Below, piece after piece: positions 11,576 through 14,547 of a DNA stretch of 42,455 bases. The notes under the pieces were generated by a model. The model saw only the letters and a list, made by a program, of their open reading frames with translations, did no database searches and was not told the origin of the DNA. The stretch's first letter is position 1. Every line of letters starts with the position of its first letter. A program made the translations under genes and the position numbers. Source of the stretch: an uncultured Candidatus Saccharibacteria bacterium (GTDB taxonomy: Bacteria > Patescibacteriota > Minisyncoccia > Phycocordibacterales > 2-02-FULL-43-11); assembly GCA_964649625.1 (NCBI GenBank), contig CAZYRJ010000002.1, forward strand, positions 1-42,455, written 5' to 3'.

Positions 11576-11986
11576 ATGCCCCCTAAACCAGCAACAAAAC
11601 AATATCTAAGAGCGATCGGCCGCAGGAATACGGCAACTACCTCAGGCCGCCTTAATCCGGCGACGAAAATGTCCTTTTCGTTGAACGGCAAGACCCTGGA
11701 GCAGTATTTTGGTACAGCCAATTTGCGGAGGATCGCGGAGGATGCGTTTAAAACCTCAAAGGTGGAAGGGTTCTATAACATCACGGCTATGATCAATGGC
11801 GGCGGCATCGTCGCTCAAGCCGAGGCTCTTCGGCACGGCATTTCAAGGGCCCTTCTCTTACAGGATGCGGATCTTCGCAAGAAGCTCAAGAAAGCCGGAT
11901 TCCTCAAGCGCGACCCCAGAATGAAAGAACGCCGCAAGTTTGGTTTGAAGAAAGCGAGGAAGGCTCCCCAATGGAGTAAGAGGTAA
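11576..11986 (+). CDS. rpsI: 30S ribosomal protein S9
   Basis: 136 aa. The S9 C-terminus is GGG...QA.A.RHGISRAL......LR..LK.AGFL.RD.R.KERKK.G..KARK.PQ.SKR. Confidence 0.93.
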   Translation: MPPKPATKQYLRAIGRRNTATTSGRLNPATKMSFSLNGKTLEQYFGTANLRRIAEDAFKTSKVEGFYNITAMINGGGIVAQAEALRHGISRALLLQDADLRKKLKKAGFLKRDPRMKERRKFGLKKARKAPQWSKR

Positions 11987-12010
11987 TTTCGACAATTTCC
12001 GCTCGATATC

Positions 12011-12110
12011 GGATTTGGACACACGTTTACGATAGCCTTCCGAAGTCCCGTACTGAAGTAATCTTCTGGTACTGGGACGAGAAAGATTCCCTCAGTGGAG
12101 TAAAAGATAA
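12011..12110 (+). pseudogene. Frameshifted relic of an rpsI (S9) 3' end
   Basis: 12090-12110 reads CCT CAG TGG AGT AAA AGA TAA (PQWSKR-stop). This matches the last 7 codons of rpsI (11966-11986) at 17/21 nt, and all four differences fall at third codon positions. Upstream, in another frame, GF...RSPVLK weakly echoes GFLKRDPRMK. The strong terminator follows the relic, not the intact gene. Confidence 0.55.
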
Positions 12111-12115
12111 AATAA

Positions 12116-12147
12116 ACTGCCCGGTCAAAGCCGGGCAGTTTTCTTTT
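12116..12147 (+). terminator. Rho-independent terminator
   Basis: 9-bp stem ACTGCCCGG (12116-12124) / CCGGGCAGT (12131-12139), followed by TTTCTTTT. Confidence 0.8.
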
Positions 12148-12170
12148 GATTCTGTGAAAAAACTTCGTTA

Positions 12171-12199
12171 TTGACGTTATCGTATAAACGTAGTATCAT
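12171..12199 (+). promoter_or_regulatory. Sigma70-like promoter of the 12273 orphan
   Basis: TTGACG (12171-12176), 17-nt spacer, TATCAT (12194-12199). Confidence 0.55.
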
Positions 12200-12272
12200 A
12201 AATGCGGATCAACAACACACTGGTTGGAACCAGAAATCGTTGTTTGATAACTGAAAAAAGGATACAACTCAA

Positions 12273-12941
12273 ATGGGTAAACCATCCTCTGTCTCTACTG
12301 GCTCTGCTCTCAATTTTGGAGCAGAGATGTTGAAGGTTCTGTCGCCAATCGTTCGCGAGATGTCACAAGGAGACATCGACTTCTGGAAGAAGAACCCGCG
12401 ACGCCTTCAATCAGAAGTACGTGCCCTACTCTTGACTAGCCGTCCGGAGATAGACCTCTGTTACCACACGAATGACTCGGTTATCCAGCCAGTGCTGAGT
12501 GAACTCGTTCCTGGAGTCAAGCCCATTAAGCTCAAGCCAGGTGCTTCGTTCGTTATCGGCTCACGGTGGCTACAAGACGCGGGTGACGAAACAGTGTTTT
12601 CGGTTGCCGTCTTAGTTTACGCAAACAACGAACGCGTAGATAACTGCGCGCAAGTCAACTTTGAGCAGACGTTCAATCCCACGGCTATCAAACTGCCGGA
12701 CATCCGAATCTCGCTTCGAAATTTGTTCGACTCACGACATGGCCAAGGTCGCACTGATTCGTTTAAAACAAGTATGGAGCTGATTGTTGAGATGCTCTTT
12801 GCTCGTTACGGTACTTTGCACGTATACCGTGCTGAATCGGCCACAGAGTCGCCAACACTCGAATTTGAGCTCCAATATGGTACATGGTTGGACTCCGCCC
12901 AGGTCTCATCCGAAGGATTTGAAGACGTATTTATCCTCTAG
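12273..12941 (+). CDS. Hypothetical protein (orphan)
   Basis: 222-aa ORF with AAGGA 10 nt upstream of the ATG. It has its own promoter and terminator. No motif recognised. Confidence 0.6.
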   Translation: MGKPSSVSTGSALNFGAEMLKVLSPIVREMSQGDIDFWKKNPRRLQSEVRALLLTSRPEIDLCYHTNDSVIQPVLSELVPGVKPIKLKPGASFVIGSRWLQDAGDETVFSVAVLVYANNERVDNCAQVNFEQTFNPTAIKLPDIRISLRNLFDSRHGQGRTDSFKTSMELIVEMLFARYGTLHVYRAESATESPTLEFELQYGTWLDSAQVSSEGFEDVFIL

Positions 12942-12961
12942 TTTACAAAATTTCCCTCAAG

Positions 12962-12988
12962 GCCGATACATTAAGTGTCGGCTTTTTC
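12962..12988 (+). terminator. Rho-independent terminator
   Basis: GCCGATA (12962-12968) / TGTCGGC (12976-12982), with one G-U pair, then TTTTT. Confidence 0.6.
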
Positions 12989-13030
12989 TAAGTCCAAATT
13001 GACCGAAAGCGATCCATCGCAGCTTTTTCA

Positions 13031-13066
13031 GTTGCAATATACTCACGGCCGTGAATATATTGCAAC
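13031..13066. promoter_or_regulatory. 36-bp near-perfect palindrome (candidate operator)
   Basis: GTTGCAATATACTCACGG|CCGTGAATATATTGCAAC has one mismatch between its arms. Its core TCACGGCCGTGA is a perfect 12-mer palindrome. The right arm overlaps the -35 of the downstream promoter. Confidence 0.65.
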
Positions 13067-13088
13067 TGTTTATGATAGAGAATACAAT
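13060..13088 (+). promoter_or_regulatory. Promoter of the PaaX-like gene
   Basis: TTGCAA (13060-13065), 17-nt spacer, TACAAT (13083-13088). The ATG at 13099 lies 10 nt downstream. Confidence 0.55.
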
Positions 13089-13098
13089 TTGTACTAAG

Positions 13099-13671
13099 AT
13101 GGAAAGAGAATTAAAAAATGCTTTAAGGAGAAAGAAAATTCAAAAGGCAATACTATACAGCTTAGCGGCAGCTGGGATGATGAGCGTTGCCGTTATGGTA
13201 CCAAATGCCTTGCAGATGCTGAAATTGTTTGACAAGCGCGTAATTAAGGATGGCAGAAAATACAACTTAGATAGATCACTTGATCGATTGCTATATCAGG
13301 GGCTGGTCAGATTTGAGAGAAATGCACATGGTAAATTTCTTCAATTAACACCTCAGGGTAATAGAGAGGTCGTTTATATCAAGCTGAACGAAAAGTTGAG
13401 AAATGATGTGAAAAAATGGGACGGGAAGTGGCGAGTTATTATTTTTGATATAAAAGAAGTTCGGCGAAGTGTACGGGACCAAATTCGGCATACGCTTAAA
13501 ACATTGGGTTTTATCAAATTGCAGCAAAGCGTATGGGTTTACCCTTATGATTGCGAAGATTTCATCACCTTATTAAAACTAGACGCTCGGGTCGGAATGC
13601 AGCTGATTTATATGATTGTCGAAAAGATAGAAAATGATAAAAAACTTCGCACTGTATTTGGGCTTAAATAA
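13099..13671 (+). CDS. PaaX-family-like / Cas2-fold-like putative transcriptional regulator
   Basis: The start was set at MERELKN inside track ORF 13051..13671. The N-terminal part looks like a winged helix (..LDRLLYQGLVRFERNAHGKFLQLTPQGNRE). The C-terminal part, WDGKWRVIIFDIKEVRRSVRDQIRHTLKTLGFIKLQQSVWVYP, resembles the PaaX C-terminal / Cas2-like ferredoxin-fold pattern. By eye the gene is richer in A+T than its neighbours. Confidence 0.55.
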   Translation: MERELKNALRRKKIQKAILYSLAAAGMMSVAVMVPNALQMLKLFDKRVIKDGRKYNLDRSLDRLLYQGLVRFERNAHGKFLQLTPQGNREVVYIKLNEKLRNDVKKWDGKWRVIIFDIKEVRRSVRDQIRHTLKTLGFIKLQQSVWVYPYDCEDFITLLKLDARVGMQLIYMIVEKIENDKKLRTVFGLK

Positions 13672-13695
13672 TATTCTTGTAGGTTTACCTAATGT

Positions 13696-13719
13696 TCACG
13701 GCCGTGCACATATTGCAAT
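13696..13719. repeat. Second, partial copy of the palindrome half-site
   Basis: TCACGGCCGTGCACATATTGCAAT matches 13043-13066 (TCACGGCCGTGAATATATTGCAAC) at 21 of 24 positions. The two copies are direct repeats flanking the PaaX-like gene. Confidence 0.65.
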
Positions 13720-13779
13720 GATTTGAAAAGGTGAACATCATTCCTGTCATGTATGATATGTAGCGTATGTATCAGGGAA

Positions 13780-13820
13780 CAATATTATCCTTGCTGGGAG
13801 CACAAGGAGTGCTAATATTG
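13780..13820. terminator. Hairpin between convergent genes (possible terminator)
   Basis: Outer arms CAATATTA / TAATATTG enclose inner arms TCCTTG / CAAGGA. The hairpin starts 5 nt beyond the stop of the minus-strand exonuclease gene. The T-tract is weak. Confidence 0.35.
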
Positions 13821-13825
13821 CCACT

Positions 13826-14401
13826 TTAAAAAGGCAGAGTGTGAGTCAAAACCGCTTCCGGTTTGGCTTCCCACTGCGAAGTATTGAGAGGGATTTCCTT
13901 TAAAACTTTGCCGTCTCTGTATTTCAAGTGGCCGTTCTTCATGGCGTAATCGTAAATATCTTTCGTTATCCTGACGTCTTCGATGCAATAATCGCGGACC
14001 TTTTCGTGCAGACCGTCTTTCCACCAGCGGGCCGCCAGAAGGCCATCGGCTGTCTTTTTTCGGCCGAGCGTCGCTTCGGCCAATGTGTCGAGCTTTATCC
14101 GCCGTCCCAAGCTTTTTTTTACTTCTTTCAAAATGTCGACACTTTTGATCTTAGTGAGGTCGCCCGAATAGTATTTATCCAACAGGGGAATGTCGAAATG
14201 ATCGGAATTGAATCCTATCAGTATGTCCGTTTTTTCGAGCAACGGCCAGAGCTTTCCAAGATCCTTCTCAAAGTAGCTCGTGTAGGCATCTGTCATCGAG
14301 TCATGGATACAGACCACGGCAATGTCCAACGAGGCCGGGTCGTTCGAGCCGGTTTCGTCAAAAAAGTTCTTTGTTTCGATATCGAATACTATTTTGCGCA
14401 C
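13826..14401 (-). CDS. DEDD-superfamily 3'-5' exonuclease (RNase H fold, PolB-exo/YprB-like)
   Basis: 191 aa with a GTG start. ExoI is FDIET, ExoII is GFNSDHFDIPLL and ExoIII is YCIEDVRITKDIY. Confidence 0.65.
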   Translation of the reverse strand: MRKIVFDIETKNFFDETGSNDPASLDIAVVCIHDSMTDAYTSYFEKDLGKLWPLLEKTDILIGFNSDHFDIPLLDKYYSGDLTKIKSVDILKEVKKSLGRRIKLDTLAEATLGRKKTADGLLAARWWKDGLHEKVRDYCIEDVRITKDIYDYAMKNGHLKYRDGKVLKEIPLNTSQWEAKPEAVLTHTLPF

Positions 14402-14547
14402 TTTAGTATTTCTATGGGTAAACCCGATCTGACTTCAAAGTCTTGTACTAAAAGTAATTTTTATTACCTAATCAATTCCCGAACCGGAAAATTTTTACAT
14501 CAGGATTTGACTTTTTGGGATTTCATTAGAAATTTAGATCAATTAGG

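Follow-up and report, generated by a model that had tools for sequence, protein, structure and literature searches.

In REP/RAYT systems a single small gene lies between its own cognate palindromic repeats, with one repeat sequence per gene lineage and more solo copies in intergenic regions. In small insertion sequences (IS200/IS1-size) the transposase promoter is located in the left end. In CRISPR adaptation Cas2 has a largely structural role. PaaX of E. coli and Pseudomonas (PDB 8a39, 3l09), a repressor that responds to phenylacetyl-CoA, is composed of the domains PaaX_N, PaaX_M and PaaX_C. The operator of E. coli PaaX is TGATTC-N27-GAATCA (39 bp), and the protein autorepresses by occupying its own promoter (PMC9493321). 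The gene described here stands between two copies of a palindrome of its own, and the arrangement probably represents a selfish, mobile module of the REP/RAYT kind in which a dimeric autorepressor binds the site on either side, as judged from sequence comparison. No account of this gene-between-own-palindromes layout was found in a full-text literature search.

The window is the whole stretch of DNA that was analysed, 42,455 nucleotides of contig CAZYRJ010000002.1, deposited as an uncultured Candidatus Saccharibacteria bacterium and treated here as coming from an ultra-small member of Candidatus Taylorbacteria. Neighbours of the gene in the window are rpsI, an ORFan, a 3'-5' exonuclease and hisS. 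The mini-PaaX gene (13099..13671, plus strand) encodes a protein of 190 aa, and together with the ORFan it belongs to an accessory segment (12147..13826) that is absent in genome G003 of the same genus, where ~215 bp separate the rpsI terminator from the exonuclease stop. The ORFan (12273-12941, 222 aa) gave no matches in a homolog search. The exonuclease gene (13826-14401, minus strand) is convergent with the cassette, and its intrinsic-terminator-like hairpin (13788..13808, minus strand) forms the right-hand limit of the cassette slot.

The window protein is a mini-PaaX, neither a true PaaX nor a CRISPR Cas2. It consists of a recognition helix (residues ~54-66), a wing (70-83), a linker helix (85-102) and a Cas2-like PaaX_M domain (105-190). 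The match to PaaX_M (PF20803) covers residues 105-175 with 70.6 bits (1.2e-19; cut-off 24). The AlphaFold model, weak at residues 31-57 (pLDDT <50), contains a winged helix (helix 54-66, two-strand wing) and a ferredoxin-like domain, and its top Foldseek matches are E. coli PaaX 8a39, with 137 columns aligned, and Rv0674. Residues 58-152 of the family profile align with PaaX 55-146. PaaX is thus the source of the best structural and profile matches, and shares with mini-PaaX the order of a winged helix followed by a Cas2-like PaaX_M. Unlike PaaX with its 316 aa, the protein terminates at residue 190 and lacks the ligand domain PaaX_C; neither PaaX_C nor PaaX_N was matched in Pfam, and the PaaX equivalog TIGR02277 scored 36.1 bits against a cut-off of 264.55. 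No paa genes adjoin mini-PaaX.

The sequence-only reading had described a hydrophobic N-terminal segment, a winged-helix-like region and a Cas2/PaaX-like C-terminal domain. AlphaFold, Foldseek and Pfam bear out the latter two, with PaaX_M as the matching profile in place of PaaX_C and Cas2, but a separate hydrophobic module was not supported. By pattern match to the PaaX N-domain, the hydrophobic segment most likely represents helices 1-2 of the winged helix. A membrane anchor at hydrophobic residues 17-42 was considered and is probably not present; the stretch fits the H1/H2 pattern of the PaaX winged helix, and the flanking basic residues give no clear topology.

With Cas2 and VapD the C-terminal domain has in common the ferredoxin-like fold (beta-alpha-beta-beta-alpha-beta, residues 111-186), the hhhF/YDI strand-1 motif and an SVW/SVF strand, and Cas2 chains are among the Foldseek matches. 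D117, which does not vary among 105/105 family members, occupies the position of the catalytic Asp of Cas2, where strand 1 ends; at this position E. coli PaaX and Rv0674 have Ser/Glu and Val/Thr. A true Cas2 or CRISPR protein was rejected, since the scores stay below the curated cut-offs (PF09827, 19.1 vs 23.8 in Pfam; TIGR01573, 23.3 vs 24.5 in NCBIfam) and the genome has no cas1: a Cas1 (PF01867) search of the whole genome gave no match, whereas control genomes did match. Defence-system models produced the weak Cas2 match only. Mini-PaaX further differs from Cas2/VapD in its fusion to a winged helix, and in that its 'repeats' lie 653 bp apart, dyad to dyad, and enclose the gene itself.

The upstream palindrome, a putative operator, is located at 13031..13066 (GTTGCAATATACTCACGG|CCGTGAATATATTGCAAC, dyad 13048|13049). 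Its 36 bp contain a sole mismatch (C13042/A13055), as had been noted from the letters, and a repeat search extended the arms to 20 nt (13029-13068, 95% complementary). By our own arithmetic, palindromes of 18+18 nt with at most one mismatch are expected ~3e-5 times per 42 kb of random sequence. Both halves follow one plan: a TTGCAA outer box (13032-13037 and 13060-13065), then a linker under less constraint, then part of the centre CACGG|CCGTG, with the core CGGCCG. The predicted promoter (13060..13088, plus strand) combines TTGCAA as -35 (13060-13065), inside the right palindrome arm, with TACAAT as -10 (13083-13088) at a spacing of 17 nt, and leaves 10 nt between the -10 and the ATG at 13099. 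It is present as first read; its 9/12 match to the consensus is by itself at chance level (3 promoter-like sites vs 3.2 in shuffles). The short distance from -10 to ATG and the lack of a Shine-Dalgarno sequence upstream of 13099 point to a near-leaderless mRNA. An alternative in-frame ATG at 13072 is preceded by a geometrically identical pair, TTGCAA-18-TATATT (13032-13061). As with PaaX, the presumed operator is long and two-fold symmetric, with outer boxes far apart and on the same scale.

The partial repeat reported earlier behind the gene belongs to a degenerate full palindrome (13684..13719, dyad 13701|13702) that begins 13 nt past the stop codon. Twelve of its 18 arm pairs are kept; the distal half (13702-13719, CCGTGCACATATTGCAAT) is well preserved and the gene-proximal half degraded. 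The better-matching stretch, TCACGGCCGTGCACATATTGCAA (13696-13718), is 91% identical to 13043-13065. Matches to the motif number 3 in the window, against 0.01 expected. The gene is A+T-rich, as it had appeared by eye: its G+C content of 38.1% lies at the 2.3rd percentile of 1,045 genes (genome G+C 48.3%). In a promoter/terminator scan the gene itself lacked an intrinsic plus-strand terminator.

The genome of 1.25 Mb contains 13 mini-PaaX paralogs (28-49% identity), all with a G+C content under the genome median and nearly all situated between two copies of their own distinct palindrome; the exceptions are a few for which one palindrome copy was found or the contig end was reached first. Some 57-60 palindromes in ~13 classes were counted, of which ~24 flank paralogs and ~35 are solo. 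The solo palindromes are of the same classes as the paralog sites; each class has 2-6 copies, every one of them in a gap between genes called with confidence. Some solo classes (e.g. ...AACCTTGTTGCTATAG...) have no cognate paralog in the assembly. Further diverged paralogs beside the solo palindromes were sought and rejected, as an HMM built from the 13 paralogs returned exactly 13. A tblastn search (E up to 10) around the solo sites recovered no gene remnants; a weak match on C21 is located inside an FtsH ORF and was treated as spurious. Many sites are perfectly symmetric across all 18-21 positions, beyond the typical need of an operator. The long perfect arms and the orphan solo classes may reflect a hairpin or cruciform role or a mechanism that homogenises the arms.

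Patescibacteria genomes are tiny and their known regulators few, yet this one keeps 13 self-referential gene-plus-sites modules. In a phylum so poor in regulators, mini-PaaX might constitute an ordinary family of host transcription factors that command small regulons via the solo palindromes, the flanking pair providing autoregulation and control of the neighbour. This is quite unlikely. The solo sites do fall into paralog classes of a few intergenic copies each, and some stand upstream of genes (80 nt ahead of murA, 301 nt ahead of nusA), but as a whole they are not promoter-enriched: ~8 lie between convergent and only 3 between divergent genes, and the downstream sites mostly face convergent neighbours, as in the window. 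Copy number within one genus runs through 0, 1, 2, 6 and 13, and in the complete genome RAAC4_OD1_1 (693,530 bp, single contig) the only good sites are the pair that flanks the gene. Host regulons also fit poorly with related species that carry different classes in the same intergenic slots.

The bracketed layout is a trait of the family, which numbers at least 1,700 clusters at 50% identity. Among Patescibacteria homolog loci, 71/80 have a significant repeat common to their two flanks, in nearly every case a palindrome of this kind, at a median dyad-to-dyad distance of 695 bp; further copies of repeat and gene thus exist well beyond the window. The geometry of an autorepressor, first proposed for the window alone, recurs in the family: of the 78 loci whose upstream site was scored, 10 have the dyad exactly 27 nt ahead of the start of the protein match, and many others have it ~45-60 nt ahead. 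Symmetry, and likewise the identity between upstream and downstream copies, is highest 2-5 and 10-18 nt from the dyad, lower at 6-9 nt and down to background at 20. Such a footprint fits two protein contact zones, not a uniform hairpin stem. The centre hexamers are limited to C[G/T][A/G][C/T][A/C/G]G types. An asymmetric core (CGACCG or CGGTCG) occurs in 54 of ~150 scored sites; the window core CGGCCG is symmetric. No orientation rule was found for the asymmetric cores (11 inverted vs 8 direct; 9:2 within the inverted class, not significant).

Palindromes might act independently of any protein, as cruciforms or hairpins, as RNA terminators or stabilisers, or as a promoter for a small or antisense RNA. 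Very long arms that are often perfect (18/18), class-variant changes that are compensated symmetrically and a gene without its own plus-strand terminator would suit such structures. There is only a slight chance that they account for the sites: no T-runs flank the palindromes, unlike the true terminator-type repeat of the genome (AAAAAGGGGAGTCC...CCCCTTTTT), the upstream copy overlaps the promoter and therefore lies outside the transcript, the symmetry dips 6-9 nt from the dyad, and specific residues of the protein predict specific bases. The earlier suggestion of an antisense or small RNA started from the downstream copy found no support. The -10-like hexamer of this copy, CATCAT, is a weak match that the promoter scan did not call, and an Rfam scan of 11900-14500 returned no known RNA family, only sub-threshold noise.

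Residues and bases co-vary across the family, residue 143 tracking the dyad hexamer and residues 55 and 59 the outer box. D143 goes with CTATAG (33/33), K with CGATCG, N with CGACCG and Q with CGGCCG. K123 is paired with C at DNA position 4 (35/39) and R59 with G at position 14 (32/40); position 17 is T with E55 and A with Y55. The window protein (Y55, R59, R123, Q143) agrees with its own site (A17, G14, T4, CGGCCG), and three loci outside the derivation of the rules obey them as well. A phylogenetically controlled test of residue 143 against the centre provided only 4 well-supported independent pairs (p ~0.25), none contrary. Within the family, variation falls on the winged helix and conservation on the Cas2-like domain, just as the outer boxes vary and the centre is conserved. 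Residues 55 and 59 for the outer box and 123 and 143 for the dyad may thus make up a compact recognition code, and with the latter two at the dyad the Cas2 fold would be put to use in reading sequence. Mini-PaaX is set apart from PaaX by its conserved dyad core in covariation with residues of the Cas2-like domain, by the invariant Asp, by the sites on both sides of the gene and by the multi-copy, patchy, cassette-like distribution.

The favoured model is that of a minimal PaaX-type DNA-binding protein, made of a winged helix and a Cas2-like domain without the ligand-binding PaaX_C, that would sit as a symmetric dimer on its own ~36-38-bp palindrome. The variable recognition helix would read the outer box (TTGCAA here), 10-18 bp from the dyad, and one face of the conserved Cas2-like domain, formed by the helix 1 N-terminus together with the beta2-beta3 turn, would read the conserved centre (CGGCCG here). 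Binding to the upstream site, which takes in the -35 of the near-leaderless promoter, would repress the gene. The second site, past the stop codon, would be bound by the same protein and may loop with the upstream one; alternatively it may insulate the unit as a roadblock.

The same protein could instead be a mobility or processing enzyme, a new class of autonomous mini-element on the Cas2 fold, widespread in Patescibacteria. The winged helix would set a Cas2-like dimer on the dyad, where the D117 pair together with D108, R112 and R126 would bind metal and nick or cleave DNA in duplex, hairpin or cruciform form. Excision, insertion, the copying of solo palindromes and local recombination or rearrangement would be driven in this way. 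Such an activity is unlikely, although several observations point towards it: D117 is invariant here and different in PaaX and Rv0674, residues 123 and 143 probably share a domain face with D117 according to fold topology, and by covariation this is the face that meets the dyad. The restricted centre hexamer, the IS-like geometry of one end site over the promoter and the other past the stop, the solo copies and hotspots, and one cassette at a synteny breakpoint would also be in keeping with an enzyme. Against it count the largely structural role of Cas2 in adaptation, the absence of any known transposase or recombinase motif, and paralogs that are old rather than recent identical copies. Target-site duplications and excision footprints were not found, asymmetric centres follow no orientation rule, and the invariant Asp could serve folding or metal-mediated binding. 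If the Cas2-like domain were catalytic, the family would bear on the origin of the CRISPR adaptation protein Cas2 and would offer a free-living, sequence-specific DNA-acting relative of it.

In the model of a self-regulated cassette, the gene and both sites would form a self-contained accessory unit without cargo and, in some genomes, without any other target. As judged from related genomes the cassette is accessory. The window cassette is missing from the syntenic site in three same-genus genomes (G003, G004, G002), so that the gene is deviant in synteny as well as in composition. Sites corresponding to two G003 cassettes are empty in G000 (C35, C37). One shared locus holds different cassettes, G000:C31 and G003:C19, with 45% amino acid identity and unrelated palindromes; the closest relative of the G000:C31 cassette (77%) is found elsewhere in G003 and has a related palindrome. 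The slot past the exonuclease stop is empty in some relatives and in others filled by solo palindromes (at least 6 classes) or by cassettes (3 different ones). A protein look-up found the identical cassette gene in only two other assemblies and returned no record for the exonuclease protein; metagenome relatives are at most 82% identical. Presence, absence and replacement at shared loci support the initial suggestion of a module that moves as a cassette, and cassettes would accordingly be gained, lost and replaced between related genomes, presumably as units. 'Mobile' could here stand for turnover by recombination and not for active transposition. The cassette unit contains no transposase or recombinase, no target-site duplications were identified at the divergence of the available relatives, and the two empty sites examined in G000 show no footprint. 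A solo palindrome as the 'empty site' was considered and rejected, because the empty sites C35 and C37 in G000 and the G003 equivalent of the window site lack a palindrome.

Symmetric arms about a 6-bp core that is often asymmetric, in both direct and inverted relative orientations, recall lox or dif sites. A host tyrosine or serine recombinase might excise, invert or integrate cassettes at solo sites, mini-PaaX being an accessory or specificity factor only, and the existence of solo sites and of a locus with different cassettes would agree with this. It is nevertheless very unlikely, because the arms, wholly different from one cassette to the next, co-vary with the protein that each encodes and could not be read by a single host recombinase. 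Moreover, the two empty sites have no solo site, the upstream and downstream copies are each internally symmetric instead of left/right hybrids (C51), and no recombinase gene is linked to the cassettes.

A putative autorepressor cassette multiplied in this genome to 13 cassettes of differing specificity and ~35 solo palindromes may be likened to a selfish REP/RAYT-like or IS-like module. With REP/RAYT it shares the single small gene between cognate palindromes, the one repeat sequence per lineage and the intergenic solo copies. Mini-PaaX is, however, unrelated to the HUH/Y1 (IS200-like) transposases, Pfam indicating only PaaX_M and a weak Cas2, and its structural matches are to PaaX and winged-helix proteins; it has few solo copies (2-6 per class in this genome, 0-1 in two complete genomes), and its upstream copy doubles as the putative operator of the gene. 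The unit of ~0.7-0.8 kb, an end site, one gene and an end site, resembles a small IS, as does its presence/absence polymorphism between related genomes; with the upstream end overlapping the promoter, an end-binding protein would autoregulate. Unlike a small IS, the cassette has no transposase fold or motif, each end is a full palindrome, and the copies in the genome are anciently diverged, with different ends and no target duplications identified. Since the cassettes mark variable slots, one of them at a synteny breakpoint, they may shape genome plasticity.

In public records many members of the family are annotated as 'CRISPR-associated endonuclease Cas2' or as 'PaaX', and the palindromes can mislead CRISPR and Cas annotation. 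Palindromes are often found near contig ends, which is consistent with their breaking assemblies.

The mini-PaaX gene at 13099-13671 (forward strand) is preceded by the palindrome GTTGCAATATACTCACGG|CCGTGAATATATTGCAAC at 13031-13066, which reads directly from the sequence as 18+18 nt with one mismatch (C13042/A13055). A repeat search of the window extends its arms to 20 nt at 95% complementarity, and by our own calculation 42 kb of random sequence would contain about 3e-5 such palindromes. Within the right arm is a predicted -35 element, TTGCAA (13060-13065, forward strand), followed 17 nt later by a predicted -10 element, TACAAT (13083-13088, forward strand), 10 nt before the ATG at 13099. 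The promoter scan of the window is by itself not significant, with three consensus sites versus 3.2 in shuffles. Downstream, the copy TCACGGCCGTGCACATATTGCAA at 13696-13718 is 91% identical to 13043-13065 and forms part of a degenerate palindrome (13684-13719, 12 of 18 pairs) in which the half farther from the gene is well preserved; the dyads lie 653 bp apart. The palindrome motif has three matches in the window versus 0.01 expected. The gene has a G+C content of 38.1% versus 48.3% for the genome, which places it at the 2.3rd percentile of 1,045 genes. Palindrome, promoter in its arm, partial repeat downstream and A+T-richness are all found, so that every descriptive claim of the sequence-only reading holds. 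An in-frame ATG at 13072 is an alternative start; a TTGCAA-18-TATATT pair within the palindrome precedes it with identical geometry, including the 10-nt spacing, but the N-termini of homologs favor the start at 13099. Such a pair occurs on either strand of 13032-13065, giving the appearance of face-to-face promoters.

The 190-aa product had been assigned a PaaX/Cas2-like fold, and the HMM search bears this out, with 70.6 bits (cut-off 24) against Pfam PaaX_M, 'PaaX central Cas2-like domain'. An AlphaFold model from a 61-sequence alignment (mean pLDDT 74, >88 across most of the C-terminal half) runs from a long helix at the N-terminus through a winged helix (recognition helix at residues 54-66, two-strand wing) and a linker helix to a beta-alpha-beta-beta-alpha-beta domain. 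Foldseek ranks E. coli PaaX (8a39, E 2.7e-5) and Rv0674 (3kfw) highest, followed by stand-alone winged-helix proteins and Cas2 chains; PaaX also ranks first in a profile search of PDB sequences. The winged helix and the Cas2/PaaX-like domain of the sequence-only reading are retained. Its hydrophobic N-terminal segment matches in pattern helices 1-2 of the PaaX winged helix, in a region where the model is weak (residues 31-57), and probably belongs to that winged helix rather than to a membrane anchor. Assignment as the PaaX equivalog was rejected: the NCBIfam score is 36 (cut-off 264.55), no PaaX_C domain was found in the Pfam search, and no paa genes lie near the window cassette. Cas2 membership was rejected as well, since both the Pfam match and the NCBIfam score (23.3 versus 24.5) fall below cut-off and the genome contains no cas1.

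The window's genome (1.25 Mb in 108 contigs, 96.6% complete) was searched for other copies of the gene and its repeat. It encodes 13 paralogs, 28-49% identical to the window protein, and an HMM built from these 13 retrieved no more from that genome. Most have a long palindrome directly upstream and a second copy of the same palindrome directly downstream; for a few, a single copy was found or the contig ended first. The palindrome sequence changes from paralog to paralog. A genome-wide scan yielded about 57-60 palindromes of the same architecture (15-21-nt arms around CTATAG, CGATCG or CGGCCG), all intergenic, between confidently called genes. About 24 flank paralogs, and about 35 are solo sites apart from any paralog, in the same sequence classes at 2-6 copies per class. 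Three solo sites (contig:position C6:8864, C8:6197 and C10:21894) resemble the window's class, TTACAAA...CACGGCCGTG...TTTGTAA.

The bracketed layout recurs widely in the family, which comprises 1,726 clusters at 50% identity (exhaustive search, E up to 1e-10). Among 80 homolog loci from named Patescibacteria (Taylor-, Nomura-, Kaiser-, Campbell-, Ryan-, Vogel-, Zambryski- and Tagabacteria, and RAAC4_OD1), 71 have a significant repeat shared by the two 250-nt flanks, upstream and downstream; in nearly all cases it is a locus-specific palindrome. The median dyad-to-dyad distance is 695 bp. A complete Campbellbacteria genome has the cognate palindrome at both flanks and at one solo site. In RAAC4_OD1_1 (693,530 bp, single contig) it occurs at the two flanks only, which implies that the module can be entirely self-referential.

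Promoter overlap also recurs in the family, in two arrangements. Of 78 loci whose upstream site was scored, 10 have the dyad exactly 27 nt ahead of the point where the protein match starts; there the palindrome end GTATG includes the start codon and the -10 box is inside the arm, so that the transcript would be leaderless. Many others place the dyad about 45-60 nt upstream, over the -35. The window cassette follows this second pattern: its dyad precedes the ATG by 50 nt and the arm contains the -35, in agreement with the autorepressor geometry first proposed. This is the arrangement of classic promoter occlusion and predicts repression, as reported for PaaX, which represses its own gene by occupying its promoter (PMC9493321).

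Several lines of evidence suggest that the protein reads its own palindrome. Across 60 cassettes (one gene between two copies of its palindrome), two zones, 2-5 and 10-18 nt from the dyad, stand out by high arm symmetry and high upstream/downstream identity; both measures dip at 6-9 nt and reach background at 20 nt. The dyads were picked with positions 4-19, which inflates absolute symmetry there, and the upstream-versus-downstream identity profile has the same shape. Two contact zones per half-site would be easier to reconcile with a bound protein than with a uniform hairpin stem. Hairpin or cruciform DNA, or a process that homogenizes the arms, may also play a part, since numerous sites show perfect symmetry and there are symmetric variants with no cognate paralog. 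The scale resembles that of the E. coli PaaX site, TGATTC-N27-GAATCA, a two-fold site of 39 bp (PMC9493321).

Residues and bases also covary. Residue 143 (x in LQxSVW, in the beta2-beta3 turn of the Cas2-like domain) tracks the hexamer at the palindrome center: D with CTATAG (33 of 33), K with CGATCG, N with CGACCG, Q with CGGCCG, and H with CGACCG or CAGGGG. Residue 123, at the N-terminal end of helix 1 in the Cas2-like domain, covaries with DNA position 4 (nt from the dyad; K with C in 35 of 39). Recognition-helix residues 52-61 track positions 11-18 of the outer box, with R59 at G14 (32/40), E55 at T17 (21/25) and Y55 at A17 (17/22). The window protein (Y55, R59, R123, Q143) agrees with its half-site CCGTGA.TATATTGCAAC at all four positions. 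Within its genome, eight D paralogs have CTATAG wherever a site was scored and four K paralogs have CGATCG; the window's is the sole Q paralog, with a CGGCCG site, and its 65%-identical relative in the same-genus genome G003 also pairs Q with CGGCCG. Three cassettes found later beside exonuclease genes, outside the derivation of the rule, obey it (Q-CGGCCG, K-CGATCG, H-CGACCG). A tree that leaves these columns out shows about 13 changes of center type, with only four independent pairs on supported branches, so that a formal sign test of the residue-143 link is not significant. Conservation differs between the two domains of the protein: mean majority frequency is 0.49 in the variable winged helix and 0.69 in the conserved Cas2-like domain, which mirrors the variable outer boxes and conserved center of the palindromes. 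Residue D117 occupies the position of the catalytic Asp of Cas2 and is invariant in 105 of 105 family members, while true PaaX proteins have lost it; from the fold topology it should share with residues 123 and 143 the face predicted to meet the dyad. On this ground an enzymatic function of the protein stays a candidate, though an unlikely one.

Within the genus, cassette copy number is 13, 6, 2, 1 and 0 per genome, and it ranges from 0 to 7 across 26 other families of the order. From the rpsI terminator to the exonuclease stop, the window has 1.84 kb, holding an ORFan (12273-12941) and the cassette, versus about 215 bp in G003; G004 and G002, of the same genus, also have no cassette beside the exonuclease gene. 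In the reciprocal comparison of the six G003 cassettes with the window's genome (G000), one pair, G003:C11 and G000:C45, is a true ortholog at the same site (83% aa identity), with outer box ATACGTTAA and center kept and the linker drifted. For two others the syntenic G000 sites are empty, with no palindrome left and no footprint. Another shares its locus with the cassette on G000:C31 and is only 45% identical to it, with an unrelated palindrome; the closest relative of the C31 cassette (77%) lies elsewhere in G003, at a synteny breakpoint, with a related palindrome. Protein similarity thus tracks palindrome similarity, not genomic position. The cassette on G003:C16 sits exactly at a synteny breakpoint, its left flank matching G000:C22 and its right flank G000:C19. 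The slot past the exonuclease stop was compared in 80 metagenomic relatives of that gene and is usually empty; otherwise it holds solo palindromes of at least six classes (+44 to +180 nt) or full cassettes of three kinds in either orientation. Upstream of murA, G000 and G003 carry solo palindromes of different classes.

Such presence, absence and replacement at shared loci support the proposal that the unit moves as a cassette. The unit contains no transposase or recombinase, and no gene remnants were found beside solo sites. Lox-type site-specific recombination might be suggested by an asymmetric core, CGACCG/CGGTCG, in 54 of about 150 sites from many family members; the relative orientation of upstream and downstream cores is however mixed (11 inverted, 8 direct), which counts against simple lox-type logic. 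On balance, the best explanation seems to be a dimeric mini-PaaX autorepressor that would occupy its two flanking cognate palindromes, gene and palindromes together forming a self-contained accessory cassette that would be gained, lost and replaced; this favors the self-regulated mobile module of the sequence-only reading.

The protein would share with PaaX the winged helix, Cas2-like dimer domain, long two-fold operator and probable autorepression, but it differs in the missing PaaX_C, the score far below the equivalog cut-off and the lack of paa context. REP/RAYT systems and small insertion sequences are jointly closest in layout (gene, flanking repeats, scattered solo copies), the latter also having an end that overlaps the transposase promoter, but their proteins are unrelated to mini-PaaX. 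No description of such a module was found in the searchable full-text literature. With 13 cassettes and about 35 solo sites, the window's genome is an unusually rich case, and it contributes a hotspot, a replacement of one cassette by another at a shared locus, and a check of the recognition code on loci outside its derivation.

The 222-aa ORFan in the same accessory slot has its own Shine-Dalgarno sequence, a terminator-like hairpin (about 12961-12990) and, unlike the cassette gene, normal G+C (49.9%). It has no Pfam or PADLOC match, no homolog among 5.8 billion proteins except a partial self-copy from another assembly, and is missing from all four same-genus genomes. Elsewhere in the window's genome, a second multi-copy repeat family, AAAAAGGGGAGTCCTTTAAAGGACTCCCCTTTTT (e.g., C1:2407-2450, C10:21771-21820, C19:8953-8986), often lies near mini-PaaX palindromes and looks like a bidirectional intrinsic terminator spread in the manner of REP elements. 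A third palindrome family, CTATTCTCTAATTCGCGCGAATTAGAGAATAG, has five copies with a CGCGCG center (C3:30362, C5:28039, C13:4532, C18:8992, C24:11240), and no gene was found to go with it. Some solo palindromes are embedded in larger repeats of 100-200 bp. Those of one class lie in repeats of about 190-207 bp, 84-87% identical (C14:73/C28:7926, C16:18131/C100:1671), which continue past the palindrome on a single side, are oppositely oriented with respect to neighboring genes, and could represent a composite MITE-like unit or a small transcript. Two or three palindromes of different classes cluster within 100-500 bp of each other (C43:101-592, C93:2146-2496), and many lie <200 bp from contig ends, which suggests assembly breakage by palindromes. 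The FtsH gene (C21:14769-19315) is a 1,515-aa ORF with two large, intein-like inserts that interrupt its AAA+ and protease regions.
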